Origin: Candidatus Methylobacter oryzae
GTDB lineage: Bacteria > Pseudomonadota > Gammaproteobacteria > Methylococcales > Methylomonadaceae
Assembly (NCBI GenBank): GCA_945861405.1
Contig: CAMAUL010000005.1
Span: forward strand, 1,629-65,628
Length of the DNA stretch: 64,000 nt
Direction of reading: 5' to 3'
A program made the position numbers and the translations under genes. The notes beneath the pieces are model-generated. The model did not search any database. It saw nothing but the letters and a program-made list of their open reading frames with translations, and was not told the DNA's origin. Of this stretch, positions 6,525 to 32,214 are shown piece by piece (positions within the stretch are counted from its first letter, which is position 1; every line of letters starts with the position of its first letter).

Positions 6525-7670
6525 ATGCTATTCAAACAATTATTCGATCAGGAAACCTGGACTTACACCTATTTGATTGCCGATCCGGACAGCAAGGACG
6601 CGATTCTGATCGATCCGGTCAATACCCATATTGATGAATATATCGAACTGCTATCAGCACACGGCCTGCAACTGAAATATTCGCTGGAAACCCATGTCCA
6701 TGCCGATCACATCACCGCCAGCGGCCTGCTGCGTCAACGTCTGGGGGCGCAAACCGGCGTTAGCGGATTATGCGGCGCAGAATCGGCGGACATTCAAATC
6801 CAGGACGGCGATGTCTTCAAATTCGCGGACGGTGAACAAATCCGGGTGATTGCCACGCCGGGTCATACGCGCGGCAGCATTTCCTTTTTATGGCGCGACC
6901 GCCTGTTTACCGGCGATTCGTTATTGATCGGCGGCTGCGGACGCACCGACTTCCAGGGCGGCGATGCCGGTGCGCTGTATGACTGTATCACCCAGCGTCT
7001 GTTTACGCTGCCGGATGAAACGCTGGTCTATCCGGGCCACGATTATCAACAGCGCTGGGTCAGCAGCATCATGCAGGAACGCACCAGCAATCCGCGTCTG
7101 GCTGGCAAGACCCGCGAGCAGTTTATCGAGATCATGAGCAACCTGAATTTGCCCAAGCCACGTTTAATCGACGAAGCCGTACCCGCCAACCGCTATTGCG
7201 GCCTGGACGAGAATGAACGCCAGGATGCGGTGGCGCTCAGGGACGAATCGCTGCCGGTTCGCGTCACCACCAAAACTGAAGATATCGCCAAGGATGGTGT
7301 GTATGCCGCAAACCTGTCGGGAACAGGCGCGGCGCTGGTAGCCGCTGCCAAGCAACGCATTGTTGAAATCGATGTCGCCAAAGCGAAACAACTGCTGGCA
7401 CAAGGCCATATCGTGCTGATCGATACCCGCGAAGAAAGCGAATACGCCGCAGGACACATCGACAGCGCGTTATTGGTGCCGCGCGGCATGCTGGAATTCA
7501 AAATCGGCAATATGCCAGAACTGGCCGACAAATCAAAAGCCGTGCTTATCTACTGCCGCTTGGGCAACCGCTCGGCATTGGCAGCGCAAACCATGCAGCA
7601 ATTGGGTTACACTAATGTGCTGTCCATGGCCGGTGGATTTGAAGCGTGGAAAAAAAGCCAAACGACCTAA
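6525..7670 (+). CDS. persulfide dioxygenase (ETHE1-like MBL fold) fused to a rhodanese domain
   Basis: N-terminal MBL motif HVHADH plus ETHE1-like 'LFKQLFD..T.TYTYL'. C-terminal rhodanese with active-site loop CRLGNRS. Confidence 0.85.
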   Translation: MLFKQLFDQETWTYTYLIADPDSKDAILIDPVNTHIDEYIELLSAHGLQLKYSLETHVHADHITASGLLRQRLGAQTGVSGLCGAESADIQIQDGDVFKFADGEQIRVIATPGHTRGSISFLWRDRLFTGDSLLIGGCGRTDFQGGDAGALYDCITQRLFTLPDETLVYPGHDYQQRWVSSIMQERTSNPRLAGKTREQFIEIMSNLNLPKPRLIDEAVPANRYCGLDENERQDAVALRDESLPVRVTTKTEDIAKDGVYAANLSGTGAALVAAAKQRIVEIDVAKAKQLLAQGHIVLIDTREESEYAAGHIDSALLVPRGMLEFKIGNMPELADKSKAVLIYCRLGNRSALAAQTMQQLGYTNVLSMAGGFEAWKKSQTT

Positions 7671-18212: not shown

Positions 18213-18286
18213 GGCTGCGTAGCAAAATGGTTATGCAGTGGCCTGCAAAGCCATCTACGGCGGTTCGATTCCGCCCGCAGCCTCCA
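18213..18286 (+). tRNA. tRNA-Cys (GCA)
   Basis: GGCTGCG acceptor stem pairs with CGCAGCC. Anticodon loop CCTGCAAAG. T-arm GGTTCGATTCC. Encoded CCA. Confidence 0.9.
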
Positions 18287-18320
18287 ATAGTGAATTCAAA
18301 CGAGTTCAAAGAAGTACAAA

Positions 18321-18354
18321 AACCCGCAAGTCACAAGGCTTAGCGGGTTTTTTA
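18321..18354 (+). terminator. rho-independent terminator-like hairpin
   Basis: AACCCGC-N15-GCGGGTT followed by TTTTT. A near-identical copy lies at 26430-26470. Confidence 0.6.
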
Positions 18355-18449
18355 TTGTCCAACGAAGTGCAATAGGGTTTATTGACATGCCCCCAATCGT
18401 GGGGGTATAAACGGGGGTATATTCAAATTCAGCAGAGTTGATACCCCCA

Positions 18450-19669
18450 ATGCCGCTATCAGATACCACCATCAAGAACGCTAAACCCAATGCAGACAAG
18501 GCTTACAAGCTACCTGATGAAAAAGGTATGTACTTGTTGGTTAATCTTAACGGTTCGAAATACTTTAGGCTTAAGTATCGTTTTGGGGGCAAAGAAAAGG
18601 TTTTAGCCCTTGGCGTTTATCCCGATACCGGTTTAAAACAGGCCAGAGAAAAACGAGACGAGGCCAGAAAACTACTTGCTGATGGTATCGACCCCGGAGA
18701 AAACAGAAAAGCGGTTAAATCATCAAAGGCAGAAAGTGCGGCAAACAGCTTTGAGGTCATTGCCCGTGAATGGGGCTCAAAAAAAGTTAATGAGTGGGAC
18801 GATAAAAATAACCGTTCCAAACGGATGCTTGAAAGAAATATATTTCCCTGGCTGGGTGGCAAGCCCATAACTGACATTTTGCCTAAAGATATTCTGGACT
18901 GTTTACGGCGTGTCGAAGATCGGGGAACCATCGAGACAGCGCACCGAACCCTTCAGATATGCGGGCAGGTTTTCCGCTATGCGGTCGCAACGGGCAGAGC
19001 CGAGCGAGACATAACGCCAGATTTGCGGGGTTCATTGCCACCGGCCAAAGGCGAACACTTTGCAGCCATTACCGAGCCGAAAGCCGTAGCGGAGTTATTA
19101 AGAGCAGTTGACAGCTACCAAGGCTCACTACCTGCCGTTTGTGCGCTAAAACTTGCGCCGCTGGTGTTTGTTCGCCCTGGCGAATTAAGGGCGGCAGAGT
19201 GGCAGCATATCGACCTTGAGGCTAAAGAATGGCGTTACTACGTATCAAAGACTGCTGTGCAACATATCGTCCCGCTATCATCCCAAGCCGTGGCAATATT
19301 GGAAGAGGTGCGCCCGTTTTCCGGTCATGGGCGCTTTGTATTCCCGTCAGAGCGCACCCCACGCGGTGACAGATGCATGAGCGACAACACCCTTAACGCC
19401 GCATTAAAACGACTGGGTTACGGTATAAGGACGTAATGACCGCACACGGCTTTAGAGCAATGGCGCGTACTATCCTAGATGAAGTGTTGGGGGTAAGGCC
19501 TGACTTTATCGAACATCAACTAGCCCACGCCGTTAAAGACCCGAACGGCAGAGCCTACAACAGAACAGCGCACCTACCGGAACGTCACAAGATGATGCAG
19601 CAATGGTCAGACTACCTGGACGGCTTGAAGAATGGGGCGCAAGTGATCCCGTTCAAAAAGCCTGCTTAG
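18450..19669 (+). pseudogene. P4-type tyrosine integrase, split by a frameshift near 19420-19436
   Basis: N-terminus MPLSDTTIKNAKP... (DUF4102-type arm-binding domain). The first frame ends ...LKRLGYGIRT*. The -1 frame continues YKDVMTAHGFRAMARTILDE..., which holds the HxxR and catalytic Tyr region. Confidence 0.8.
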
Positions 19670-19855
19670 GCCAATACACGGTAAATAATCTTATATACCC
19701 CCGCACCCGAAACAAAGCAACGCCAGATAGCCGGGCAGTTTGGGCGTGCTTTTTGTTAGCTTTCACCCGCCCGCAATCATCAGGCCGATACCGCTACGAT
19801 TTGCCGTAATGATACGCGGTCAATTTGCGGCAGCAGCTGCCCCGTTGTAAAAGTT

Positions 19856-20030
19856 TAAGGGGGGTATATATAATTCTTGGGGCTTTTGGGGCGAAAGCTT
19901 TATAAGCCTTATATACCGTGGTTTACAGCCGCCCCAAACACGTAAATTTAATGGGGAGTTGTTGGGGCATTTGGGGCGCTTTTATTAATTTTTTGGGGCT
20001 TTTTAGAAAAACATTAATAAATAGGGGCGT
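19856..20030. repeat. left iteron array (TTGGGGC x6) / left arm of a long inverted repeat
   Basis: TTGGGGC at 19877, 19886, 19962, 19971 and 19993, plus variants. CCGTGGTTTACAGCCGCCCCAAAC is the exact reverse complement of 25232-25255. Confidence 0.8.
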
Positions 20031-20188
20031 TTTCGCCGTCTAAATCGATTGATGTCTGCGGTGCTTAAAATCGCACACCTGATATAATCCAAATTGACCG
20101 GATAGCTCGACGGAGCAATAAGCGGGATTCGTTCCCCCGTTTCCGGTTATTTCTTTCTGGACGACTTGCACTTTGACGAGGTGTTATT

Positions 20189-20641
20189 TTGCCTGAAATT
20201 CCATGTGACGATGTAATTCACTATACAGTTGAATATAAAGATTACAAAAACTTACGGCTTCATGAGAGGCTTGCAATTAATGCCTATATGTTGGGCAATG
20301 ACACACAGCTGATACAATCAATCCTTACGGAGAATGAAGAAATTTCTAAGAGCATGAGGCGTTTTATTGCCGATATGATTTCTGGAAAGATAAAGCGCGA
20401 GGCAAGCAAGCAAGAAACAACGATCCACCATAAGATTGCCCTTTGCAGAGAAATAGACGCTTTAGCTAAAGGTAAAGCGCAAGACAAAGCCGTTGCCGTT
20501 GGCATTATTGCAGCGCGCGAGCATAGATCATCTGAAGCAATTAACACCAGGTACTACGAAGGCAAAAAAGCCATCAAAGCAGATCGAGACGCTTTGCTAA
20601 AGTATATGATTGATAATTATCACCCTAAAGGCGAAAAATAG
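20189..20641 (+). CDS. hypothetical protein (150 aa)
   Basis: ORF with a TTG start preceded by GAGGTG. No recognisable family. Confidence 0.45.
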   Translation: MPEIPCDDVIHYTVEYKDYKNLRLHERLAINAYMLGNDTQLIQSILTENEEISKSMRRFIADMISGKIKREASKQETTIHHKIALCREIDALAKGKAQDKAVAVGIIAAREHRSSEAINTRYYEGKKAIKADRDALLKYMIDNYHPKGEK

Positions 20642-20791
20642 TTAAGCTGTTGTTGTCAACAGCGCCCCGCCACACTATTTTTACTTCCCTGTCTATTTGA
20701 AATTCAATCTCATTATTCAAATAGACCAACACCCCCGACATCGCTTTAAACTCTCCTCGAATTTTATTAATTAATCGATGGAGTACGACTG

Positions 20792-21049
20792 ATGGTTACA
20801 AAAAACGCAAACGCCCAACTAAAACCACGCCAGAAAATCACCTACGTTGCAAGTGCGCTCCCCCTGGAGGGCTATATCCGCCTGCCCAGTGTGCTAGCCG
20901 TGATTGGGATCAGCAAGACCAGTTGGCACGATGGGCAAAAATCGGGCAAATATCCCGCCGGAAAATTACTATCCCCGCGCTGTCGAGTTTATCCCGTTAC
21001 AGAAATTCGCGCCTTGCTGGCTTCAATTGAAAAGGGGGCTGCAGTATGA
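20792..21049 (+). CDS. AlpA-family regulator / excisionase-like HTH protein
   Basis: 85 aa. 'YIRLPSVLAVIGISKTSWHDGQKSGKYP....LSPR...Y...EI' is the AlpA/Xis HTH pattern. Confidence 0.75.
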   Translation: MVTKNANAQLKPRQKITYVASALPLEGYIRLPSVLAVIGISKTSWHDGQKSGKYPAGKLLSPRCRVYPVTEIRALLASIEKGAAV

Positions 21050-21510
21050 ACACACAATCAAAACCCGCTCAATCCGAGCAAGCCCACCTGAGCCTTAACG
21101 ATTTGCATCTGGCTTTTGCTAATAGCTGTATTCCTTACCGCGTACTCATTACTGCTGGCTTGGATGTCGATCACAAAACAGACCGTTTGCAAAGGCTTGC
21201 TGACGGAGTCGGGAAACTCGACGCTATTACCAAGCAGTTGCTTAGAAACGCTTGTGGTGCAATTGGTGCAACGGATTCCGCTAATTTTCCACCATATGCT
21301 GAGATAAACCAACCATTCAACCAAACCCCGACCCTTGTTGATTTGCACCATGCCTTTGCTGATGTCTGCTACTGGTATGGCGCACTCGTTATAAAAGGCC
21401 GGCATGACGAATGCGTAATATACCATCTGCAATACCTTGCTGGACAGGTAGAGCAATTCGATACCATTACCAAGCAGTTGCTTAGTAATGCTTGCGGAGG
21501 TGCAGAATGA
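21046..21510 (+). CDS. hypothetical protein with an internal tandem duplication
   Basis: ATGA overlap with alpA. Two ~60-aa repeats each end in ITKQLL.NACG. Confidence 0.5.
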   Translation: MNTQSKPAQSEQAHLSLNDLHLAFANSCIPYRVLITAGLDVDHKTDRLQRLADGVGKLDAITKQLLRNACGAIGATDSANFPPYAEINQPFNQTPTLVDLHHAFADVCYWYGALVIKGRHDECVIYHLQYLAGQVEQFDTITKQLLSNACGGAE

Positions 21511-21785
21511 ACGCTTCCGATACTAAATTCAACCACCGCATAAATGCCGGGCAAGATGGAAAGTTTTTCAGCCTTCATGACGCAATAAACCCGTCTTTGG
21601 AACGCGCCACTGCAATAGCCGATTTGATCGAAGTTGCCTGTGAAGTGGTCGATGTAACCAGTTTCGAGTCAACTACCCTCTGGCGGGCTGCTCAAGCGAT
21701 CCGCCTTGAGATTAAAGATACTCAAACAATACTGGTCGCCTGCCTTGATGAGAATAAAAACAGTAATCAGGAGGTGCAATCATGA
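21507..21785 (+). CDS. hypothetical protein
   Basis: ATGA overlap with the upstream gene and RBS GGAGGTG. 92 aa. Confidence 0.5.
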   Translation: MNASDTKFNHRINAGQDGKFFSLHDAINPSLERATAIADLIEVACEVVDVTSFESTTLWRAAQAIRLEIKDTQTILVACLDENKNSNQEVQS

Positions 21786-22084
21786 GCGATAACGCCCGTA
21801 CTCAACCGGTTTCAAGACCGCCAACGGTAGAGTGTTTTTTTGTGGCTGTTAATAAGCAGAGCGACAGCTATAAGCTGTTGCTTTCGCCTGTTTCGCCATA
21901 CTTTAGAACCCTTGAAGAGGCCAAGGCGTTTCACACAACTTTCAAGATAGAAGGTTCTTATTGTGCTGATTCGACTTATTACCCAAGAAGCGCAGAAGAT
22001 GCCAAGCAACATGAAGAGGAGTTGTTTGGTAGTGAAACCAAGCTGGCACGCAGGCATAAAAAACCCACCCAAACCACCATTTGA
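21782..22084 (+). CDS. hypothetical protein
   Basis: ATGA overlap with the upstream gene and RBS AGGAGGTG. 100 aa. Confidence 0.5.
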   Translation: MSDNARTQPVSRPPTVECFFVAVNKQSDSYKLLLSPVSPYFRTLEEAKAFHTTFKIEGSYCADSTYYPRSAEDAKQHEEELFGSETKLARRHKKPTQTTI

Positions 22085-22172
22085 GCGGGTTTTAGCATCC
22101 AACAAGACTACTAAACCAGCGGCTATTTTACCGCGTGGCGCTGTTGGGTGCTACCCGCAAGGAAAGCATTTT

Positions 22173-23093
22173 GTGAACACTTATCAAATTATTGACGCTT
22201 TTAAAGCGTCGATGCGCGAAGCTGACATTGAGCCGCCCGATAAAATTCTGGCTGATGGCGTTTTACACCGTTTCCACATTGTCGGTCAGAAACAAGGCAG
22301 CTTGAATGGAGCCTACAAACTGCACCTGGACGGTGCGAAGCCCGCCGGGTATTTTGAAGATTTTAAAACCGGCATCAAAGCCAACTGGAAGGCCGACAGC
22401 CCCGCTAAACATTTCACCCCAGCCGAACGCCAGCAGCATGAGGTCGCCAAAAAGACACGAGATCAACAGCAAGCGCAGCGGTACGAACAAACCGCAAACT
22501 TAGCGCAACGTATACTTGACGCAGCCAAACCGCTGACCGGAAACGACCACCCTTATTTGCTGAAAAAGCGCATCGATTCACATGGTTTGTATCGGCTGAA
22601 GGTCTGGACGAAACGCCACAAAAATGATGCTGAGCAATGGGTGAACCTCAATATTCAGAATGTTTTATTGGTGCCGTTGATCGACATCAATGGCAAGCTT
22701 TGGAACTTGCAAGCGATATTCTCAGAGACAGACCCGACTTTAGGGCGTGATAAAGATTTTTTAAGCGGCGGACGGCTGGGCGGATTATTCCACGTTATCG
22801 GCCAACCGACTGACGAGGTGATTATTTGCGAAGGCTATGCAACCGGAGCCAGCCTGCATACCGCCACCGGCTCCCAGGTGCTTTGCGCCCTGTCGGCAGG
22901 CAACCTGTTCAATGTCGCCAAAGCAGTACGCGCCGCTGATTCCCGCAAAAAGATAATACTCGCCGCTGATAATGACTTAAAAACGCCCGGCAATCCCGGA
23001 GTGACCGCCGCAAAAAAGGCGGCGCTGGCCGTAGGCGGTTTTCTGGCCGTGCCACCGGTGGCGGGCGACTTTAATGATATGGAGTGCGTGTGA
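22173..23093 (+). CDS. Toprim-domain primase-like protein
   Basis: 'DGVLHRFH..G.K.GS.NGAYKLHLDG.PAGYFEDFKTG' N-terminal pattern, then Toprim 'VIICEGYATGASL...ILAADND'. The start is uncertain: GTG at 22173 after AGGAAA, while the ORF is open from 21963. Confidence 0.7.
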   Translation: MNTYQIIDAFKASMREADIEPPDKILADGVLHRFHIVGQKQGSLNGAYKLHLDGAKPAGYFEDFKTGIKANWKADSPAKHFTPAERQQHEVAKKTRDQQQAQRYEQTANLAQRILDAAKPLTGNDHPYLLKKRIDSHGLYRLKVWTKRHKNDAEQWVNLNIQNVLLVPLIDINGKLWNLQAIFSETDPTLGRDKDFLSGGRLGGLFHVIGQPTDEVIICEGYATGASLHTATGSQVLCALSAGNLFNVAKAVRAADSRKKIILAADNDLKTPGNPGVTAAKKAALAVGGFLAVPPVAGDFNDMECV

Positions 23094-25051
23094 AAAAGAC
23101 ACCCGATAACCCGATTTTAACCGTCGTCAAGTCGGCTCAACCGGTCAACAATACGGGCGAGGCCGATAAATGGGCAGACCGCCGAATCGGTGATTATTGC
23201 ATCAGCCACAGCTGCATATTTTTTATGCGAAAAGGCCGCGACAATAAGGAAGGCAAGATTAACGAAATCCCAACGCCATTAACACATAATTTTGTGGCGT
23301 TGATTGCCGAGCAAATCAATTTGGACGACGGCCTAAAACAGGAAGCCGCTTTTTTAGTGGAAGGTAGACAGAAAAACGGGCAGCCATTACCGACGCTCAC
23401 AATCCCAGCCACGCAATACCAAGCTATGCAGTGGCCGTTACGAAATTATGGCGGGCGCGGCATTGTTGAGGCCGATCAAGCCACACCGCGCCGACTGGCA
23501 AACGGTATCTTGATATTAAGCGGTGATATTCCGATAACCACGGTTTACCAGCACACCGGCTGGAGGCATATCAACGACCAATGGTTTTATCTCAGCGGCA
23601 GCGGGGCGATAGGTGCAGAGGGGTTGAATATTGACACCCGCGTTGAACTGGGCGAAGGTCACATGCAGCGTTACGTATTGCCCGCGCCCGCTGCCAGCCC
23701 TGGACAGATGGCAGCTACACTGTTCAGCCTGTTGTATATCGCGCCAGAAAATAAGGCTGTTGGTGTGTCGCTATTTTGCGGCGTAGTTCGGTCTGTGTTG
23801 GGCGAGTGTCTACCGGTTGACTTCGCGTTGTTTCTGTCCGGTCAATCAGGCTCACAAAAGTCGGAATGCGCGGCTCTGGCGTTGGCCTGTTTTGGCGACT
23901 TCAACGCCCGGAGATTCCCGGCTAATTTTACCGATACTGAAAGCGATCTTGAACATAAAGCCCACCAGGCAAAGGATGCAATTTTCGTTGTCGATGACTT
24001 GGCTCCAGGTTCTAGCCAGCAGGAAGCAAACAAAATGAATACTAAATGTGACCGGTTGTTTAGAGGCGCAGGCAATCAAAGCGGGCGCGGTCGCCGCAAC
24101 GCCGACATGACCGGCAAGGCGGCATATTTCCCGCGCTGCATGATTGTCGCCACGGGTGAAGATACGCCGAAAGGCGCATCATTGCTAAGCAGGATGCTTG
24201 TTATCGAATTTAAGCGCGGCGATGTAGCCTTGTCATCACTTACCAGTTTGCAACACCTGTCGCAAAAGGGTGAGCTGTCGACAATTATGGCCGCATTTAC
24301 AAAATGGCTTGCGCCGCGCATGCCCGACCTGAAAAAAACTTTTCCGAACATGGTGCATTCTATCCGCGATAAGGCATTGGCGGGAAACTTCGCTACCAGT
24401 CACCCACGCGCCGCCGACATTTACGCGAGCTTATACGCGGCGGCGGATATTTATATCGAGTTCTGTCACGAAGTTGGAGCCATTAATTCAATCCGCGCCA
24501 CTGAACTGATGGAGACCATCGACGACGCACTGAAAGACGCGATCCGGGCGCAAGGTCAATTTCAAAAACAAAGTGATGAAGTGGAAAGATTTATTGCCTT
24601 GTTACGCGGCTGTTTTAGCGCGGGGGAATGCCATGTAAGCGACTCCATGAACCAAGGCCCGCCGGTGCAGCATCCGTTTATTTGGGGATGGCGCACCCCT
24701 AGCGAAGGTGCCGATGTTGCCGGGCGCGGTCAGTTAATCGGCTGTGTTAATCAGATCAACGGTGAATTATGGCTTGACCCGGAGGCGACTTTCAAGACCG
24801 TGCAAAAGTTCGCCAGTTCGCAAAATGACCCGATTCTGATACAAAAAGCAACGCTTTGGAAAAGGCTGTTAGAGCGTGGGCTATTGACCACCTATGAGGT
24901 GAGCAAAAAATCAGGTGTAAAAAGGCCAGACGTAAAAAGGAGCGTGACCGGTAAGCGTGTTCGGGTGCTGATTTTCAATACCAATGTTATTGAAAACGTC
25001 GATTTGATTGTCAACAAAGACATAAAATCGGAGCATTCAGGCGATGATTAA
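23084..25051 (+). CDS. DUF927-like P-loop NTPase (replicative helicase candidate)
   Basis: 655 aa. Walker A-like GQSGSQKS and Walker B-like IFVVDDL. Overlaps the primase gene by 10 nt. Confidence 0.6.
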   Translation: MRVKKTPDNPILTVVKSAQPVNNTGEADKWADRRIGDYCISHSCIFFMRKGRDNKEGKINEIPTPLTHNFVALIAEQINLDDGLKQEAAFLVEGRQKNGQPLPTLTIPATQYQAMQWPLRNYGGRGIVEADQATPRRLANGILILSGDIPITTVYQHTGWRHINDQWFYLSGSGAIGAEGLNIDTRVELGEGHMQRYVLPAPAASPGQMAATLFSLLYIAPENKAVGVSLFCGVVRSVLGECLPVDFALFLSGQSGSQKSECAALALACFGDFNARRFPANFTDTESDLEHKAHQAKDAIFVVDDLAPGSSQQEANKMNTKCDRLFRGAGNQSGRGRRNADMTGKAAYFPRCMIVATGEDTPKGASLLSRMLVIEFKRGDVALSSLTSLQHLSQKGELSTIMAAFTKWLAPRMPDLKKTFPNMVHSIRDKALAGNFATSHPRAADIYASLYAAADIYIEFCHEVGAINSIRATELMETIDDALKDAIRAQGQFQKQSDEVERFIALLRGCFSAGECHVSDSMNQGPPVQHPFIWGWRTPSEGADVAGRGQLIGCVNQINGELWLDPEATFKTVQKFASSQNDPILIQKATLWKRLLERGLLTTYEVSKKSGVKRPDVKRSVTGKRVRVLIFNTNVIENVDLIVNKDIKSEHSGDD

Positions 25052-25140
25052 GATGGCACAGTGGCCTTTATTCGCAGTACCAGCCTGCTAAAAGTTTTAG
25101 CTGAAAATCTGGCAAAGGTAAAAAAATTGACCTGTAAAGA

Positions 25141-25163
25141 GCCCGGAAAAATCCGGGTTTTTG
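25141..25163 (+). terminator. rho-independent terminator-like hairpin
   Basis: GCCCGGAAAAATCCGGGC-like stem followed by TTTTT. Confidence 0.55.
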
Positions 25164-25169
25164 GTGCAA

Positions 25170-25320
25170 AAATCATCATCCGCCCCAAATAAAACAGCAA
25201 ATGCCCCAGCATTTCCCCAAAAAAATACGGGTTTGGGGCGGCTGTAAACCACGGGTGGCATGGCTTACAGCCGTTCGCCCCAAAATCCCCAAGTTTTACA
25301 ACATACCCCCCCCTATAGTT
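25170..25320. repeat. right iteron array (GCCCCAA series), mirror image of 19856-20030
   Basis: GCCCCAA/TCCCCAA at 25182, 25203, 25214, 25277 and 25286. The reverse complement aligns with the left arm over more than 80 nt. Confidence 0.8.
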
Positions 25321-25499
25321 TTATGTTTATCGTGTTGGTCATCTGAATGTTTAGTAACTTTCTTAGGGGCTGACTACACAAAACGCGGGGTTCGAATTAC
25401 CCGCATTGGGGAATCGCTGGAAGTACCTTTTACCCTGGCGCTTCGGACTAAAAGCTATACATGACTTGTTAAGTAACGCGCCTACCAGGGGCATGTTTG

Positions 25500-25751
25500 T
25501 TAGGGGCGCGGGGCTTGTAGAATGGCTTGAAACAGTGAAAGCAGCGCGGCTAAAACCACGACGGTGACCAAGTAAGGAAGGAACAGTAAGAGCGCGCCAA
25601 AGGGTGCGACAATAGCCGATACAATCAGCGCCGCCCATGCTGTGCCGCCGCCATGTATCGCTGCGACAAAGCAACCAGCAAAGGTGATGGCAATAATCAT
25701 TTGTGGGTGATAAGGCCAATCAATGATGTGATCAAAGCTATTTTTAGGCAT
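25500..25751 (-). CDS. small membrane protein (83 aa)
   Basis: Start at the internal Met with RBS AAGGAGA. Three hydrophobic helices. Confidence 0.5.
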   Translation of the reverse strand: MPKNSFDHIIDWPYHPQMIIAITFAGCFVAAIHGGGTAWAALIVSAIVAPFGALLLFLPYLVTVVVLAALLSLFQAILQAPRP

Positions 25752-26087
25752 AAAATCTCCTTGAAGTAGGTTGTGAGTGTAGCTAATAAAGCCGATGGTT
25801 GTCATGGTAAATAACTTGGCAGAGGGTAAGCCGCAATGGTTGCGATTAATAATGTAATACATTATTTAACATAATGTCCGTTATGCGAAGTTATTGATGT
25901 ATTACAATAATAACTTGACTTCTTGAATCCTAAGTACAGCGCGGCCTGTAGCGTGTTTTTCATTATTGCGCATAAAGTTGACATTATCTGTTATTTATGT
26001 ATTACAATATTATGCAATATAGCCCGCAGCGCTTGCGGCAGGGTATTGATGAATTACATTTAATGCTTTTCTGAGGAGACACCGCCA

Positions 26088-26249
26088 ATGGAACAAAAAA
26101 AAGCACGCGCCAAAGGGGCAGGCCGTAAGCCATTGCCGCCTGAAGATCGAGCCAAGGTTATATCTTGCCGATTAACCGAGGCACAACACAAACGGTTTAT
26201 CGAACTGGGTGGCGTTGTCTGGCTAAGACAGCAGATCGATAAAGTTTAG
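26088..26249 (+). CDS. small basic protein, possible ribbon-helix-helix regulator (53 aa)
   Basis: Not in the ORF track (<60 aa). RBS GAGGAGA. Sequence MEQKKARAKGAGRKPLPPEDRAKVISCRLTEAQHKRFIELGG... Confidence 0.45.
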   Translation: MEQKKARAKGAGRKPLPPEDRAKVISCRLTEAQHKRFIELGGVVWLRQQIDKV

Positions 26250-26412
26250 TTCGTCTACTTGGAATTTATGCGGGCTATTTGATGTGGGCTTTTGTGGCAA
26301 AAACAGGGGCAGCATTGAGCGCGTGGGGGTACTTTTGGGGGTATATTTAAAAAACGAAATCAACAAAGCCTTTAACAGCAGGTCGTGCAGAGTCTATTGT
26401 GATAGAGCCCGC

Positions 26413-26500
26413 AAAACAGATTCAACAAAGTCCAATAACCTGCAAGTCATAAGGCTTAGCGGGTTTTTTATTGTCCAACGAAGTGCAGGGGTTTGTTGAC
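26413..26500. repeat. direct repeat of 18303-18392 (island junction)
   Basis: CCTGCAAGTCATAAGGCTTAGCGGGTTTTTTATTGTCCAACGAAGTGCAGGGGTTTGTTGACATACCGCC aligns with 18323-18392 with few mismatches. Confidence 0.85.
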
Positions 26501-26508
26501 ATACCGCC

Positions 26509-26715
26509 ATAAAGAACGCTAAATCCACCGAAAATCCTTATAAAATACGGGATGAGAAAGGTATGTACTTGCTGGTTCATCCTAATGGCGGCAAATACTT
26601 TCGATATGATTACCGCTTTGACGGTAAGCGCAAAACCTTAGCATTGGGAACTTACCCGATAACATAACTCAAAGAAGCCAGAGATAAGCGAGATACCGCC
26701 AAAAAACAGATTGAT
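26509..26715 (+). pseudogene. second P4-type integrase, N-terminal stub
   Basis: Reads IKNAKSTENPYKIRDEKGMYLLVHPNGGKYFRYDYRFDGKRKTLALGTYPIT*LKEARDKRDTAKKQI. It parallels residues 9-75 of the 18450 integrase, has no start codon and has an in-frame stop. Confidence 0.8.
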
Positions 26716-26896
26716 ATCACATTTTATTTGACAGGGTTACTTTGATTGGTTTTAGCTTACTGGTGGATAGTTTTTAAGAAAGCAAAAGGCTCGCCCCCTT
26801 TAATATGCGTTCGGACAGGCCATTATGGGCTATAGTTAACATCTATCCAATGTGGACAAAATAGCCATAAAAACAACTTTGCAAGGAAAATATGAC

Positions 26897-27379
26897 ATGA
26901 ACCGAAAACCAGGTCAGAACCGATTCTTTGATATTGATGGTGATGTTTCAATTCAGTTGGCTCCATGGGTATTAATAAAAAAAGGATACCCAGAAGGCAT
27001 AGCCTATTTTGATCTTAAAATCCCAATACGCTTTTACAGTGATATTGCTAAAGGGGTTATTGTTGTCCCGGAAAACTATCGATCAGACTTGGCATCAATT
27101 CCTCAGTTTGCTTGGTCTATTTTTATGAAACCAGATGACCCACGAATCGAGCTGGGCGGCTGGATACATGATTATCTTTATGAATTAGAAGGAAAAGATA
27201 TACCGTTGGAAGGTGGGAGGAAAGTGTCATTAAGTCGAAAAGAAGCCGATAGGGTACTTACAGAGGAAGCTATGCCCGACCTCTTTGCAAATGACTTCCA
27301 GTGCGAGACCGTTTATCAGATCCTGCGTAAGTTTGGCAAAGGCTGGGCAAACGATTCGTTTTGGGAACGTTTTGATTAA
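26897..27379 (+). CDS. DUF1353 domain protein
   Basis: 'SDLASIPQFAWS........GGWIHDYLY......SRKEADRVLTEEAM' matches the DUF1353 pattern. Start at the Met with RBS AAGGAAA; the ORF track starts at 26852. Confidence 0.65.
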   Translation: MNRKPGQNRFFDIDGDVSIQLAPWVLIKKGYPEGIAYFDLKIPIRFYSDIAKGVIVVPENYRSDLASIPQFAWSIFMKPDDPRIELGGWIHDYLYELEGKDIPLEGGRKVSLSRKEADRVLTEEAMPDLFANDFQCETVYQILRKFGKGWANDSFWERFD

Positions 27380-27434
27380 CATTAAGGCAACTGCTTTCAG
27401 CTAGACATATATTTAAATAAAATTTTCTATCATC

Positions 27435-28388
27435 ATGACAAATAACGAAAATTACTGGTTCATGCTCCAGTTCAAATTGAAGCTTTATCAAGCAACTGGT
27501 GAAGAATTTCAACGCTTATTTAATAGCGTAATGACGGCTAGTCATGGTGAAAATTATCAGTCTGTACGGCCTTGGGGAATCGAAGGTGATGGTGGCAATG
27601 ATGGGTACTTAGCTAACGAAGGGCGTTATTTTCAAGTTTATGCGCCAAGTCCTACAACTAAAACGAATGAAGCATATGCCGTTAAAAAGGCTAAAGACGA
27701 TTTTCATAAATTAAAAGAGAGTCAATCAAACCTAAAACACTATAGTTTTGTGCTAAATGATCGTTTTGTCGGTGGTTCTAAGCCAGTACATCAAGCTTTG
27801 ACTGAAATTTCTAATACACATAATATTCCCACTTCAGTATTCAATAGCGGACATCTTGAACAACGTTTCTTAGGACTGGATAACAACCAGAAGATGAGTA
27901 TAGTTCAAGGGGTGCCCCTTGAGGTTCCAAAATGGATTGATCCACGGATGGTATCGGAGTTACTTGAGTATCTTACTAAATCGTTTAATTTTTCATTGAA
28001 TTTAATGACCGACCAGGACACAGCGCCTGAATTTGAAAAGAAAATTCAAATTAACAACCTCCATCCTGGAATTTCTAAACATTTACGATTGTATGCAAAT
28101 CAAGTTGGAGAGGTTAATGCTTTTTTGAATGCTCGCCCTGGAATGGCGCAAAACATTGCTGATGAGTTACATGAAGTCTATATTGATAGCTTATCTGCAA
28201 TACCTAATACAGAAAAAAGTGCTACGGATTTACGCTTTGTCTATATTTTAGAGCGCATTATACCTCCTGTGGTTAAAATAGATCCCATGCAACGCAGTGG
28301 GTGGCAGCAGATTGCCTTGATTGTCATGGCTAAGTACTTTGAAACTTGTGATATTTATGAGCACCCCGATTCCACTTATTCCACATAA
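27435..28388 (+). CDS. candidate effector of an ABC-3C/Lamassu-like system
   Basis: 317 aa. The N-terminus 'EEFQRLF...WGIEGDGGNDGY...YFQVYAP' resembles an Mrr-like PD-(D/E)xK layout but lacks the usual Lys. The C-terminal ~200 aa are uncharacterised. Overlaps the next gene. Confidence 0.55.
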   Translation: MTNNENYWFMLQFKLKLYQATGEEFQRLFNSVMTASHGENYQSVRPWGIEGDGGNDGYLANEGRYFQVYAPSPTTKTNEAYAVKKAKDDFHKLKESQSNLKHYSFVLNDRFVGGSKPVHQALTEISNTHNIPTSVFNSGHLEQRFLGLDNNQKMSIVQGVPLEVPKWIDPRMVSELLEYLTKSFNFSLNLMTDQDTAPEFEKKIQINNLHPGISKHLRLYANQVGEVNAFLNARPGMAQNIADELHEVYIDSLSAIPNTEKSATDLRFVYILERIIPPVVKIDPMQRSGWQQIALIVMAKYFETCDIYEHPDSTYST

Positions 28389-28638
28389 GCATATCCGTTT
28401 TTCCGAGAGCATTTTGCTACTCGCTGGATTTGTGCGCACTTACTTGCTTGATCGCCCGCAAACCTTGGATGAGCTATGGACGCGACTTCATAGCCTACGG
28501 AAAGACCATGTTTGGCTTGATGATATATCATTTTCCAGGCTTGTGCTTGCAGTGGATGTCCTGTTTGCTATAGGGCAAATTGATAGTATCAAGGATGATT
28601 ATATCGGTTTAAAGGACTCCTCTAATGCGACTGATTAA
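28357..28638 (+). CDS. small middle-component/adaptor protein of the three-gene system
   Basis: 93 aa. Overlaps the upstream gene by 32 nt and the downstream gene by 14 nt. The start is uncertain (a TTG at 28321 is also possible). Confidence 0.5.
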   Translation: MSTPIPLIPHKHIRFSESILLLAGFVRTYLLDRPQTLDELWTRLHSLRKDHVWLDDISFSRLVLAVDVLFAIGQIDSIKDDYIGLKDSSNATD

Positions 28639-30337
28639 ACTATCTGCCAACCAGCCAGGTTTCAAAACGATACATTTCAATCCACAAGGCTTGACCCTTA
28701 TTGTTGGGGTCTCATCTGGCGGAGAGCAAGAAGGTAATTCAAATGGTGTTGGCAAATCACTTGCGTTGCGATTAGTGCATCACTGCCTTGGAGCAAATGC
28801 TAATAAAAATTTCAGTGAAAAACTTCCTGAGTGGGTTTTTCGCCTTGATTTTGAAATTAATGGGCAGTTTCACACTATAGAGCGTAGTGCAGACAGCAAG
28901 ATAATAACACTGGACAACCAGTCGATTAAATTGAGGAATCTAACAAATTGGTTGAATGAAAGTGGCGTCTTTGACCTTACGGCCGCCTCTAATCTTCCTA
29001 TTACATTTCGTTCGCTTATCAAACGATTTGCTCGATTAGAAAAATCCGACTGTATAGAGCCAGACTCCACAGCTAAAGAAACGCCTTTCGACGCGCTAAT
29101 ACGCACACTTTTTCTTTTAGGTTTAGATGTTAGTTTGGTATCACGTAAACATGAATTTAAAAAGCGCATTGATGCTTTAAAGAGCGCGAGCCAATTATGG
29201 AAAATCAATCCAGCACTGCATGACATGTTTCGTGCAGGTGATGATGCGCGCATTCGCGCTAATTGGCTAAAAGATAAAATACCTGAATTAAAAGAGCAGC
29301 TTGGTAGAATGGTAGTAGCAGAAAACTATCGAGACCTGGAGCAGGAAGCTAATAGACAAACACTATTATTGCGCGGTATATCACAAGAAATTGAGTTACT
29401 GAAATTTCAAGTTAAGGGTATTTCTGAGCTACTTGTTGAACACCCAGATGTTAGCTCTCAAGAGCTCTTGGCGTTATATAAGGGATTGGAGGGTGTTTTT
29501 AAAGCAGAAGCGTTAAAACACTTCGAGGCAGTTGAGCAGTTCCATAGCAGTTTGACTGAGAGCAGAAAGCGGAGGCTTTTAGGTGATCTTACACGGATCA
29601 ATGCAGAAATCGAAACCAAACAGTTTGAGCAGAAAAAGCTGGAAGAACAGCGCGACAAACTTCTGCAATCGTTGATAGGTAAAACAGCTTTTGAAGAATA
29701 TCGTGCAGTAGCTAATCAGCTTGCTCAACAGGAGCAGGAACTTAAAGCCCTCAATGATTATTTGGAATTCGACGTCAACGTTAATAAGGAAACTTTGAGC
29801 ATTAAAGAAACCATGCTCCACGATACTCATCAAGCCGTTACATATCTTGAGAATAATCCTATTGCTGAACTAGAAACCCGTTACCGCACACTCACACAAC
29901 CTTTATATCCAAATGCAGCTTCCGGCATCACCTTTGAAAATAATACAGGTGAAAATATGATGCGCTATACGTTTAAGCCTCGCCTCGAAGGGTCGGGTTC
30001 TGATGGTATTAAAGATGCTCGGTTGTTATGTTTTGATTGGTTGGTTTTCATGCACGGAGCAAATCATACAATGCGCTTTCTTTGGCATGATAATAGGCTT
30101 TTTGCACACCTTGATCCCGGTGTCCGTGCCAGATGGTTTTCCCTTGTATTGACAGAATTAAAATCAACAGAAAAACAGTACATCGCTACTATTAACGCAG
30201 AAAACTATGACAGCATGCTTACATGGCTTTCTGAGAAAGAGAGAGCAATCTTAGAATCTCCAGGCGTTAAAGCTTTAGAGTTACGTGGCAACCAGCCAAG
30301 AGATAAACTTCTTGGGATTCAAGTTGATTTACAATAA
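28625..30337 (+). CDS. SMC-like ABC ATPase with coiled-coil insert (DUF2326/YydD-like)
   Basis: Walker A GNSNGVGKS near the N-terminus. E/K/L/Q-rich coiled coil over ~aa 190-400. C-terminal signature-like GSGSDGIKD and Walker B/D-loop-like MRFLWHDNRLFAHLD. Confidence 0.7.
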   Translation: MRLIKLSANQPGFKTIHFNPQGLTLIVGVSSGGEQEGNSNGVGKSLALRLVHHCLGANANKNFSEKLPEWVFRLDFEINGQFHTIERSADSKIITLDNQSIKLRNLTNWLNESGVFDLTAASNLPITFRSLIKRFARLEKSDCIEPDSTAKETPFDALIRTLFLLGLDVSLVSRKHEFKKRIDALKSASQLWKINPALHDMFRAGDDARIRANWLKDKIPELKEQLGRMVVAENYRDLEQEANRQTLLLRGISQEIELLKFQVKGISELLVEHPDVSSQELLALYKGLEGVFKAEALKHFEAVEQFHSSLTESRKRRLLGDLTRINAEIETKQFEQKKLEEQRDKLLQSLIGKTAFEEYRAVANQLAQQEQELKALNDYLEFDVNVNKETLSIKETMLHDTHQAVTYLENNPIAELETRYRTLTQPLYPNAASGITFENNTGENMMRYTFKPRLEGSGSDGIKDARLLCFDWLVFMHGANHTMRFLWHDNRLFAHLDPGVRARWFSLVLTELKSTEKQYIATINAENYDSMLTWLSEKERAILESPGVKALELRGNQPRDKLLGIQVDLQ

Positions 30338-30420
30338 TGTGTAAAAGCGAGGGTGTAAGAATTTTTGTGTAAATGGTCATTTGGTAGGAAACTGCCACCA
30401 CTTTTAACGAGGAGTTAGAA

Positions 30421-30510
30421 ATGACCGTAAGCAATGAACTGATTGACAGCCTGCTGGCTAATTATAAGAAACCCGAAGACCTAATTGGTGAATACGGAAT
30501 TTTAAAGCAA
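30421..30510 (+). pseudogene. IS256-family transposase, first ~30 codons only
   Basis: MTVSNELIDSLLANYKKPEDLIGEYGILKQ matches the conserved IS256/mutator N-terminus. The frame then runs into the antisense of the ATPase gene. Confidence 0.65.
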
Positions 30511-31182
30511 CAGGCTGTCCGCCGCTGCATCGTCCAGGTTGCGCAAATGCTGCGGGGATAAATAGCTTGGGAATGTCGAAGTCATGGCATCAGGCAGGCG
30601 CTGAAAATGCTCCGCCAACGGCAAGCGCGAGGCCACCACCAAGGCTAATTGAGTAGCGGTGATGAGGGAGCGTAAGCCATTATAAAATTGCGGCACCTGA
30701 AAACCGGCGTGGTGTTGGGACTCCAGCAGCTGCTCGAATTCGTCCACCAGCAACACCGGGCGACCTAAGCTGTTATCGGACAATTGCCGCAACAGCCGTT
30801 CGAAGCTGTCGAAATCGGCATCCGGCGAGTGTTGCAGGTTTTGCAGCAGTGCTGCGGAATCAGGCAGGATTACCGTGTCGGGCAGGACGGTCAAAATCCC
30901 CCTTATCGCCAAGCCGTAAAAGCGTCGGGCATCGGTGATGTTTTGCAGGTCAACGCGGACTAACAGCAAGGGCGGTGTGCCCGGTGCGGGACGATGTGCG
31001 GGGTTATCCTGCAAATGGTTGAGGAACGAGGTTTTGCCCATGCGTCGCTCACCGACTAGGTTTACGGATTCGAACTTGCCCAACGCGGCATGGATCAAGG
31101 CAAAAGTTTCCTCGCGCCCAAACAGCGGTTCGTTGGCCGTTAAAGGCCGACCAACGGCAAACGGTGACTGCGGTGCATCCAT
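30502..31182 (-). pseudogene. STAND/AAA-type ATPase, 3'-truncated by the IS256 stub
   Basis: Walker A GERRMGKTS and Walker B LLVDEFEQL. Only 226 aa, and the last codons and stop are supplied by IS-derived sequence. Confidence 0.6.
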
Positions 31183-31234
31183 GACAGTGTCCTAATGTTG
31201 TTATTTTGTAGCGGCTTTAAATTTCAGGGCATTT

Positions 31235-31315
31235 GGAGTCGCGACTTTAGTCGTGATGATGGCTCATCATCACGACTTATACATGAATGCTCATGCGCGA
31301 CTAAAGTCGCGGCTC
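31235..31315. repeat. GGAGTCGCGACTTTAGTCG-type palindromic repeat
   Basis: GGAGTCGCGACTTTAGTCG ... CGCGACTAAAGTCGCGGCTCC, with an inner hairpin TGATGATGGCTCATCATCA. Confidence 0.75.
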
Positions 31316-31464
31316 CGTTTATGGTTTTCTTGCCTTTTAAAATAGAGGGTTATTTTTCTGGTAGGGATTTTAACCGGATAAGCAATAAAAGTAATCACCT
31401 CACTAGCGGTGCTAATTTTTTGATTGGTTTTGCCTTTCCGTATAAAACAAGATACAGTTAAGCC

Positions 31465-31767
31465 ATGCATACGATTTTAACAACAGACGTTTTTGATTCG
31501 TGGTTTGGGCAGTTGCGCGATAACCACGCAAAGGCGCGCATAAAAGTCAGGCTACGCCGGGCTGAAGATGGTAATTTCGGCGATGTAAAACCCGTGGCTA
31601 AAGGCATCTCTGAAATGCGCATTCATTACGGCCCCGGTTATCGGCTGTATTTCATGCAAAACGGTTTCGAAATCGTGTTGTTATTGGCTGGCGGCGATAA
31701 ATCAACGCAAGCCGATGATATTCAAACGGCAGTAGCGCTGGCGAGAAAACTGAAGGAGGGAAAATGA
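31465..31767 (+). CDS. RelE/HigB-like addiction-module killer protein
   Basis: 100 aa. 'F..W...L.D..A...I..R..R...GN.GD.K.V..GISEMRI..GPGYR.YF.....EIVLLL.GGDKS.Q..DI' is the typical pattern. Confidence 0.8.
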   Translation: MHTILTTDVFDSWFGQLRDNHAKARIKVRLRRAEDGNFGDVKPVAKGISEMRIHYGPGYRLYFMQNGFEIVLLLAGGDKSTQADDIQTAVALARKLKEGK

Positions 31768-32087
31768 CTGTAAAATTAAATAAATGGGATGTGCTCGATC
31801 ATCTTAAAACGGAAGAGGATATGAGGCTGTATCTGGAAGCCTGTTTTGAGGAAGCGGGGGATGATCCCGCTTTTATTGCCAAGGCTCTGGGCGATATAGC
31901 AAAAGCCCGCAGCATGACGCAATTGGCTAAAGATACTGGCTTGGGCCGGGAAAGTCTGTACAAAGCCTTGTCAGGCGAGGGTAATCCGAGTTTTGGCACG
32001 ATCCTAAAAGTGATTAAAGCGTTGGGACTTAAACTGCATGTTCAGGCTGTCGATAAGGAGGATGAGCCTTTAACGCATGTAAATTGA
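31764..32087 (+). CDS. HigA-like addiction-module antidote protein (HTH)
   Basis: ATGA overlap with the toxin gene. 'YL....EE.GDDP.FIA.ALGDIA.A.SM.QLA..TGL.RESLYKALS..GNP.F.T...V..ALGL'. Confidence 0.8.
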   Translation: MTVKLNKWDVLDHLKTEEDMRLYLEACFEEAGDDPAFIAKALGDIAKARSMTQLAKDTGLGRESLYKALSGEGNPSFGTILKVIKALGLKLHVQAVDKEDEPLTHVN

Positions 32088-32214
32088 CCGCAGGCGGTTT
32101 TTTATGAAATAGCCGCCAATTTGCGGCTTACCGCGAGTATCGCCAGTCATTGTCTATTTTGTATCGTTTCCACGAAGCGGGTCACTGCCATTAAGTTAAT
32201 GAGAACAATAAAAA

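Follow-up and report, generated by a model that had tools for sequence, protein, structure and literature searches.

Which class of system do three overlapping genes in a 64,000-nucleotide stretch of Candidatus Methylobacter oryzae DNA encode (contig CAMAUL010000005.1, positions 1,629 to 65,628; the whole stretch is referred to as the window), and is that system still intact? An earlier reading of the letters and their translations (the sequence-only reading) had described the three genes, termed A, B and C here, as an effector, a small middle protein and an ATPase resembling structural maintenance of chromosomes (SMC) proteins, and had proposed a conflict system of the Lamassu or three-component ABC (ABC-3C) type with an uncharacterized effector. 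The analysis reported here indicates that the trio is probably an intact ABC-3C system of the Lamassu superfamily, of the subtype CTD10/MC6/DUF2326 (YydD-like), and that it is the cargo of a decayed integrative islet. Reviews and structural papers place ABC-3C within the Lamassu superfamily.

In terms of family membership, all three proteins score above the curated Pfam cut-offs, which bears out the proposed class and the YydD-type ATPase. A matches CTD10 at 2.3e-9 (38.3 bits versus a cut-off of 28.1), B matches MC6 (PF20293) at 3.9e-16 (59.3 bits versus 27.2) and C matches DUF2326 (PF10088) over residues 424–566 at 8.2e-27 (94.1 bits versus 28.7). The CTD10 domain lies in the region of about 200 C-terminal residues of A that had been thought to have no recognizable family, a statement that is incorrect. 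The ABC-3C class was reportedly defined computationally by Krishnan, Burroughs, Iyer and Aravind in 2020 (NAR 48:10045), and Pfam encodes it as the families CTD1–12, MC1–7 and DUF2326; each of its three hallmarks, a DUF2326 ATPase with a coiled coil, a CTD-bearing effector and a middle component between the two, is found in the window. Among the PADLOC models, PDC-M68B covers C nearly in full (residues 3–527, 1.1e-67), PDC-M68A matches the C-terminal domain of A at 8.4e-8, with models that extend over the C-terminal part only, and the LmuA model PDLC03852 matches residues 17–108 of A at 3.1e-7; no PADLOC model matches B. PADLOC PDC entries are candidates that are not known to have been tested. 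The trio is neither uncharacterized nor unusual as a class, as had been suggested: the family is already represented in Pfam, in PADLOC and in RefSeq naming, which labels plasmid and Escherichia coli copies [quoted passage not shown]. Database names for the homologues of A and C are “ABC-three component system protein” and “YydD (DUF2326 family)”, respectively.

The order effector, small middle protein, ATPase had been read as matching the class and proves to be a family trait. Iterated profile searches over the open reading frames (ORFs) of 85 sources located B and C immediately 3′ of A, in the same order, in 74 of 86 A occurrences, and the exceptions lie mostly at contig ends or in interrupted genes. 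The three co-directional ORFs of the window overlap as previously read, by 32 nt between A and B and by 14 nt between B and C, with an AAGGA placed 9 nt 5′ of the gene C ATG. At the A/B junctions of the trio loci, an overlap of 4 nt is the most frequent (n = 22), followed by one of 32 nt (n = 17) and a gap of 2 nt (n = 14); at the B/C junctions, overlaps of 10 nt lead (n = 42), ahead of those of 14 nt (n = 10) and 4 nt (n = 8). Tight gene coupling is thus the rule across the family, and because it recurs there the overlaps in the window are not a matter of chance. The coupling on which a claim of obligatory co-translation had been built therefore stands, whereas the obligation itself is something we infer. 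The start of B is also as originally read: in an alignment with 15 homologues, a conserved LPxKH sits a few residues after the ATG, which rules out the longer version from a TTG at 28321 given by an automatic ORF list.

The trio is widespread and sits in mobile contexts. A scan of one genome per species yielded 109 relatives, and the 80 loci kept belong to Proteobacteria, Firmicutes, Planctomycetes, Acidobacteria, other bacteria and archaea. Homologous trios occur on 40 plasmids, and of 5426 complete E. coli genomes 7 have one from this family. A blastn search with the locus itself gave no match in plasmids, nor did a tblastn search with C in phages. The flanks are unrelated between loci and of mobile or defense type. 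The trio adjoins an S24 repressor gene in an Acinetobacter prophage and a type I restriction HsdR gene at one further locus; in Pectobacterium it resides in islands with a P4-type integrase and with LHH toxin, SUKH immunity, DUF87 and dynamin-like genes, and Kluyvera carries it in a similar integrase island. A constant trio within varying flanks is what is expected of a self-contained mobile module and does not speak against the assignment. The E. coli trios (for example NZ_CP021726.1 2965247–2968205; NZ_LR890349.1; NZ_CM176349.1) share about 96% DNA identity with the Kluyvera copy, and in two of the seven E. coli carriers the trio is interrupted by IS903B or ISSen4.

The ATPase motifs of C that had been picked out by eye, Walker A, signature-like and Walker B, are conserved over the 27–71 homologues used to judge them (Table 1). 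The residue that follows the Walker B D489 is Asn in the window and Asn or Ser in most homologues, and Glu in none; the switch position after the strand formed by residues 518–524 is an invariant Asn, not a His. For short Lamassu systems the LmuB Walker B has been described as hhhhD[Q/S/T/E] (10.1101/2025.04.02.646746). Compared with that pattern, the Ser of the C family falls within, the Asn is unlisted and the Glu is equally absent; LmuB proteins, too, have no catalytic Glu, and they are very slow ATPases. In the AlphaFold2 model of C (pLDDT 87), a coiled coil runs between two halves of the head, in agreement with the coiled-coil insert noted earlier, and model confidence is low at the apex near residues 271–300. 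A Foldseek search of this model against the PDB returned first the YydD chain of the Bacillus subtilis YydD-YydB integrative model (3.5e-24, TM 0.60) and next Lamassu LmuB chains, from Salmonella enterica, from Vibrio cholerae and from type I/II entries (2.5e-13 to 5.8e-9); SMC heads, condensin, cohesin, Smc5/6, Rad50, JetC, SbcC and RecN appeared among and below the weaker LmuB matches. NCBIfam gave no passing model, the only match for C being to TrlF and far below threshold, and PHROGs placed C in an unnamed family only. C is an SMC/Rad50-like ABC ATPase of the DUF2326/YydD family and the probable counterpart of LmuB, and B would be the counterpart of LmuC.

The AlphaFold2 model of A (pLDDT 84, pTM 0.83) folds into two parts, an N-domain followed by an all-helical C-domain in which six helices span residues 200–303. 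The best structural match of the model is the YydB chain of the same YydD-YydB model (probability 1.0, 158 columns). Gene A has homologues in 104 full-length clusters of about 315 amino acids, 102 of which carry a precomputed CTD10 match; all 27 members aligned in this work match CTD10 as well. The CTD10 domain of A would serve for docking and oligomerization. The C-terminal end of A is its most conserved segment, reading YFETCD(I/A/V)(Y/F)E.P at residues 301–311 (28335–28388, with the A/B overlap), with Y301, F302, E303, C305 and P311 invariant. In the proteobacterial clade this motif is encoded partly within the 32-nt A/B overlap; it is kept where the overlap is 4 nt, and therefore the constraint acts on the protein. 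The YFExCD...P motif may dock A onto B or C.

The N-domain of A is reminiscent of the Mrr nucleases and lacks their canonical lysine. Its predicted topology, α-α-β-β-β-α-β-α-β, fits the restriction-endonuclease core (α-β-β-β-α-β). EcoKMrr reads GDGGIDG...VYVQAK, and the LmuA protein of the Lamassu system of E. coli SE15 reads GAGDKGRD...LYQCK; GDGGIDG and GAGDKGRD both align with GDGGNDG of A, and the YQCK of SE15 LmuA aligns with FQVY. In hhalign comparisons of A with these Mrr types (P only 0.003–0.045), four elements are collinear: the FE/FQ helix, GDGGxDG, the strand with xQx[K/Y] and the hydrophobic strand that follows. The comparison with EcoKMrr reached a probability of 11% and P 0.003 over 40 columns, with an Mrr alignment of low diversity (Neff 2.1). 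The sequence-only reading had remarked that the expected lysine is replaced in the segment YFQVYAP (residues 65–71), and this observation extends to the whole family: all 27 aligned members have Y, H, F or C there and none has K, so that the canonical D...(D/E/Q)-x-K motif is absent from A, which has Y69 in place of the lysine. Since a non-lysine residue stands there in every aligned homologue, the loss reads as ancestral to the A family and not as a defect of the window copy. Twelve residues of the N-domain are invariant (G48, G51, D52, N55, D56, G57, Q67, K85, D89, F105, N108 and D109). K85 and D89 sit on the helix of residues 79–96 in the model, with K85 16 residues past the canonical lysine position, and are candidates to supply the missing lysine function.

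No Pfam model and no PDB sequence matches the N-domain, neither Mrr_cat nor any other Pfam nuclease model matches the A of the window or any of its 27 homologues at E ≤ 1, and sequence searches of A and of profiles of the A, B and C families against all PDB chains returned nothing meaningful. Foldseek neighbors of the N-domain include EcoT38I, Hef/XPF, Mus81, Shedu and phage “restriction endonuclease” models, together with endonuclease I, TnsA and Holliday junction resolvase; every neighbor with a named function is a nuclease of the restriction-endonuclease (PD-(D/E)xK) fold, at sub-threshold E values of 0.008–1.5. We read the N-domain of A as a probable nuclease whose active site departs from the canonical one. 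A search of the whole library with residues 1–165 of A found 932 representative clusters. The domain also heads proteins of about 1270 amino acids with tetratricopeptide repeats (TPR) and a PIN-TPR-GreABC domain (P0245, P0246, P0266 and others), a NACHT STAND NTPase (P0321) and a 534-residue TPR protein (P0104). It appears to be a portable, unnamed effector module used across several conflict-system architectures. Ten further relatives of the N-domain (330–350 amino acids) matched the PADLOC LmuA models weakly or not at all and provide no bridge to canonical Lamassu.

The islet that carries the trio can be delimited by comparison with a close relative (L003), in which the same chromosomal site is available. 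Window positions 26418–30348 are 96.8% identical to positions 7057–11009 of L003, and the core flanks are 84–92% identical. L003 lacks window positions 18395–26418 and 30348–32213 and carries the second, smaller element only. Positions 26414–26487 repeat 18298–18371 at 88%, and 26501–26627 repeat the 5′ end of an integrase gene at 18463–18592. Within 18213–30348, two integrative elements stand in tandem downstream of the tRNA-Cys gene, of which the first is an integrase-primase element (18.4–26.4 kb) and the trio islet is the older. The right end of the islet is set by the comparison with L003 only, because the 3′ end of the tRNA-Cys gene is not repeated elsewhere in the window. The description of the trio as part of an integrase-marked islet next to a tRNA gene was only loosely correct: the islet has its own integrase stub, whereas the integrase ORF at 18438–19436 belongs to the separate element and the tRNA-Cys gene lies 9 kb away. 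The DUF1353 gene that precedes A was considered as a fourth component and ruled out, being present among 88 related loci only in the near-identical L003 and L004.

In GC content the trio, at 0.403, lies below both bioB (0.52) and the window as a whole (0.482), and is thus AT-richer by about 8–12 points. The much larger gap reported earlier, about 30% against about 60% in bioB, came from spot counts of 60-nt lines, whose values spread over 0.28–0.52 in the trio and over 0.43–0.68 in bioB. The synonymous divergence (dS) from L003 is 0.05–0.09 for islet genes and 0.29 for bioB; the islet value is far below that of bioB, and the exchange of the islet therefore postdates the divergence of the two genomes. 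L003 has the same three ORFs intact at 97–98% identity, and the ratio of nonsynonymous to synonymous substitution rates (dN/dS) against it comes to 0.16 in A and 0.12 in C, with too few changes in B for a verdict. A and C are under purifying selection, and the trio is, on its reading frames, apparently intact. A scan for promoters and terminators at the trio did no better than in shuffled sequences, and it found no convincing σ70 promoter upstream.

A mechanism can be proposed by analogy. In the solved Lamassu complexes, a monomeric LmuA is held inactive through its C-terminal domain (CTD) by two LmuB protomers and LmuC, and the sensing of DNA frees LmuA, which tetramerizes through the CTD to give an active nuclease site and abortive infection. 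Because the trio shares the layout, the gene order, a short ATPase with a deviant Walker B, a helical CTD and a nuclease-like head, we propose the same sequestration, release and oligomerization switch. A dimer of C together with B would hold an A monomer inactive by binding its CTD10 domain. ATP-dependent engagement of the C heads on foreign DNA (ends, or replication intermediates of phages or plasmids) would then release A, which would oligomerize through CTD10; the N-domains thus brought together would cut DNA indiscriminately and abort the infection. What the analysis itself shows is the set of parts and their homologies; the complex, its trigger, the oligomerization switch and the nuclease activity of the trio are all put forward here on the strength of this analogy.

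With the same architecture, A might instead not be a DNA nuclease: its N-domain would be a module derived from Mrr whose catalysis was lost or whose chemistry changed, and might, for example, only bind DNA, cleave RNA or nucleotides, or recruit another factor. This seems unlikely to us. The replacement of the Mrr lysine throughout the family, the lack of a Pfam nuclease match in any member and the weak profile–profile scores against EcoKMrr and SE15 LmuA do point that way, but D52, D56 and Q67, acidic and polar residues of the kind expected at a metal site, are invariant together with K85, D89, N108 and D109, which fits an enzyme and not a scaffold. Moreover, the same domain occupies the effector position of NACHT, TPR and TPR-PIN proteins, and its function-named structural neighbors are, without exception, PD-(D/E)xK nucleases. 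Going further than the probable nuclease assignment, and with somewhat more doubt than confidence, we propose that the head of A represents an uncharacterized, Mrr-derived nuclease class in which K85 and D89 with N55, N108 and D109 are catalytic, that this module is common to the CTD10 effectors, the NACHT STAND protein and the TPR-PIN proteins of about 1270 residues, and that the CTD10/MC6/DUF2326 branch functions as a Lamassu-type system, with an activation and a cleavage chemistry unlike those of the Cap4 paradigm. A separate question is the target. That the trio acts mainly on plasmids or competing mobile elements, or stabilizes its own islet, in place of anti-phage abortive infection, is rather unlikely. 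In its favor, DdmABC, a Lamassu relative, targets plasmids in addition to phages, the homologous trios reside on plasmids, in prophages and in integrative islands, and the islet of the window is younger than the divergence of the core genomes. Action on plasmids and defense against phages are not mutually exclusive, however, and with its integrase reduced to a stub the islet has no active element left to stabilize.

Two further explanations would deny the trio a present role in defense. If it were a decaying remnant without function, the degraded islet, the integrase stub, the frameshifted integrase of the neighboring element and the result of the promoter scan would all be accounted for; but the three ORFs are full length, collinear with their homologues and in possession of all invariant motifs, and the low dN/dS of A and C against so close a relative is that of genes under constraint, which makes this very improbable. 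The remaining explanation, named in advance by the sequence-only reading as a way in which its proposal could fail, is that C is a housekeeping repair ATPase of the RecN, RecF or SbcC type with incidental neighbors. The general SMC/Rad50-like fold, with Rad50, SbcC and RecN lower in the Foldseek list, speaks for it, but YydD and LmuB are the best matches and no RecN, RecF or SbcC profile in Pfam or NCBIfam matches C. The gene invariably occurs alongside CTD10 and MC6 genes, is sporadic in E. coli and is island-borne and AT-richer than its host. The housekeeping explanation is effectively refuted and has, in our judgment, a negligible chance of being correct.

Several results weigh against the assignment to an active Lamassu-type nuclease system. 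HMM (hidden Markov model) profiles of the C, B and A families recovered no solved Lamassu chain by sequence in the PDB, and no LmuA or LmuC chain was recovered by sequence or by fold for A and B. In PADLOC, the PDC-M68A/B models and one LmuA model agreed with the assignment, whereas the LmuB models touched C in the Walker A region only (residues 37–101, 2.6e-7 and 2.6e-5). An hhalign comparison of C with the validated SE15 LmuB was weak (P 0.0017, probability 16%, 215 columns), and that of B with SE15 LmuC gave nothing. Support for the restriction-endonuclease fold of A is sub-threshold (Foldseek E 0.008–0.3; hhalign P 0.003–0.045), and without the canonical Mrr lysine its nuclease activity is not assured. 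In the literature searched, neither an experimental phenotype nor a solved complex was found for the CTD10/MC6/DUF2326 subtype, for which PADLOC lists a candidate only.

The surroundings of the trio islet were inspected as well. In the first element, the P4-type integrase ORF at 18438–19436 spans positions 5–119 of a 172-position catalytic-domain profile, and what remains of the catalytic region (HGFRAMART…HQLAH…GRAYNRTAH) lies in another frame at 19397–19666; the split is a frameshift or a sequencing error. At 21963–25051, a Toprim primase gene (376 amino acids) overlaps the gene for a 655-residue protein with a weak phage DNA-primase match, and the pair together with the integrase looks like the core of a P4-like satellite or integrative replicon. 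An AT-rich repeat of 23 nt, GTTATTGATGTATTACAATAATA, occurs three times at 25890–26064, with spacings of 100 and 52 nt. The copies lie immediately upstream of a small ORF in the right-hand end of this element and may be iterons or operator sites. On the other side of the islet, the segment 30349–32213 that is missing from L003 encodes a 226-residue AAA_16/nSTAND-like fragment (30502–31182, minus strand, GC 0.57) and a HigB/Gp49-like and helix-turn-helix antidote pair (31465–31767 and 31764–32087). It may be a further defense or addiction remnant between the islet and comF/bioB. A short ORF at 30421–30555 was considered as IS256-like and dropped, having no Pfam support.

Table 1. Features of the trio and of its islet, in positions of the window
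Feature	Position	Strand	Basis or remark
Gene A, effector, 317 aa	27435–28388	+	ORF
Gene B, middle component, 93 aa	28357–28638	+	ORF, Pfam MC6
Gene C, SMC/Rad50-like ABC ATPase, 570 aa	28625–30337	+	ORF, Pfam DUF2326
A N-domain, residues 1–165	27435–27929	+	Probable nuclease module, no Pfam name
A GDGGNDG motif, G51–G57	27585–27605	+	D52, N55, D56 invariant; alignment of 27 members
A FQVY, F66–Y69	27630–27641	+	Q67 invariant; Y69 at the Mrr Q-x-K lysine position; alignment
A K85-x3-D89, helix after strand 3	27687–27701	+	Both invariant; candidate relocated catalytic Lys
A CTD10 domain, residues 196–309, six-helix bundle	28020–28361	+	Pfam PF20275
C Walker A GNSNGVGKS, residues 37–45	28733–28759	+	NGxGK core; N40, G41, G43, K44 invariant
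C coiled-coil insert, about residues 170–424	29132–29896	+	AlphaFold2 model, sequence; no CxxC zinc hook
C signature-like GSGSDGIKD, residues 456–464	29990–30016	+	D460, G461 invariant; S459 nearly
C deviant Walker B RFLWHDN, residues 484–490	30074–30094	+	H488, D489 invariant
Islet with trio, 3.9 kb, GC 0.40	26414–30348	+	att-like repeat, integrase stub, DUF1353 gene, trio
Integrase remnant, 50 codons, Arm-DNA-binding domain only, then stops	26503–26652	+	Pfam Arm-DNA-bind_3, 1.1e-11; not part of the system
DUF1353 gene	26852–27379	+	Pfam DUF1353, 7.2e-10
tRNA-Cys	18213–18286		9 kb upstream of trio

The trio of the window is one more instance of a class that was defined computationally (ABC-3C, 2020) and has been folded into the Lamassu superfamily, and alone it changes little. 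Its branch, CTD10/MC6/DUF2326, is widespread, as seen from the 109 species genomes of a single scan, the plasmids and prophages, and the seven complete E. coli genomes, the last of which make an experimental test easy. The effector head, a conserved module with 932 representative clusters, no Pfam model and no canonical catalytic lysine, poses a clear biochemical question. Together with its 97%-identical relative, the window offers a clean case of a defense operon surviving in a decayed tRNA-linked islet next to which a second element has been inserted in tandem.

In comparison with the ABC-3C class as a whole, the trio shares the order of effector, middle component and ATPase, the gene coupling and the mobile or defense-like location, and no class-level difference was found; the putative catalytic module at the N-terminus of its effector is distinctive in having no Pfam model. 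The closest structural relatives are YydB-YydC-YydD of B. subtilis (PDB 9a6c), YydD being the best match for C and YydB for A, with sequence identities of 13–17%; YydB has 481 amino acids, of which the 158 columns mentioned above align with A. No functional data on YydBCD were found in the literature searched. PDC-M68, the PADLOC candidate that fits C nearly over its full length, is likewise not mentioned in the literature searched.

The validated Lamassu systems are related in layout and differ in their parts. The operon order lmuA, lmuC, lmuB and the build of LmuA, with an effector head and a helical CTD, are both present in the trio. Type II Lamassu (DdmABC/LmuACB of V. cholerae and S. enterica; PDB 9hqu, 9hqx, 9nyg and 9uxh) has the same three-gene operon, in which an effector and a small protein accompany an SMC-like ATPase, and like C its ATPase is short (about 570–630 amino acids) with a deviant Walker B; V. 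cholerae LmuB also has no zinc hook, and no experimentally solved structure found is closer to C than the LmuB chains. Its effector has a helical CTD as A does, and the LmuA CTDs of short Lamassu systems are described as bundles of five to six helices. In type II Lamassu the nuclease head is Cap4, combined with CTD7 and MC3, and type I combines Cap4 with CTD12, whereas the window combines a variant Mrr-like head with CTD10 and MC6. Lamassu-Mrr of E. coli O150:H5 SE15, which Millman et al. 2022 validated and whose sequences come from supplementary file 11, has the same gene order and an Mrr-type LmuA head that is collinear with A in the FE/FQ helix, GxGDxGxD, xQxK/xQxY and hhFVxx, and it defends E. 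coli by abortive infection, for which its ATPase, its effector and LmuC are all required. Unlike A, SE15 LmuA has 379 amino acids, the canonical lysine of YQCK, a weak Mrr_cat match and CTD6; unlike B, SE15 LmuC has 168 amino acids, belongs to MC2 and is called a winged helix-turn-helix protein; and SE15 LmuB has 620 amino acids with a CxxC hook that C lacks, the pairwise profile scores between the two sets of proteins being weak or nil. The CTD10/MC6/DUF2326 subtype thus differs from every validated or solved Lamassu checked, and the trio of the window is an ordinary member of this catalogued but experimentally unvalidated subtype, its one curious feature being the lysine-less Mrr-like head that it shares with its whole family.

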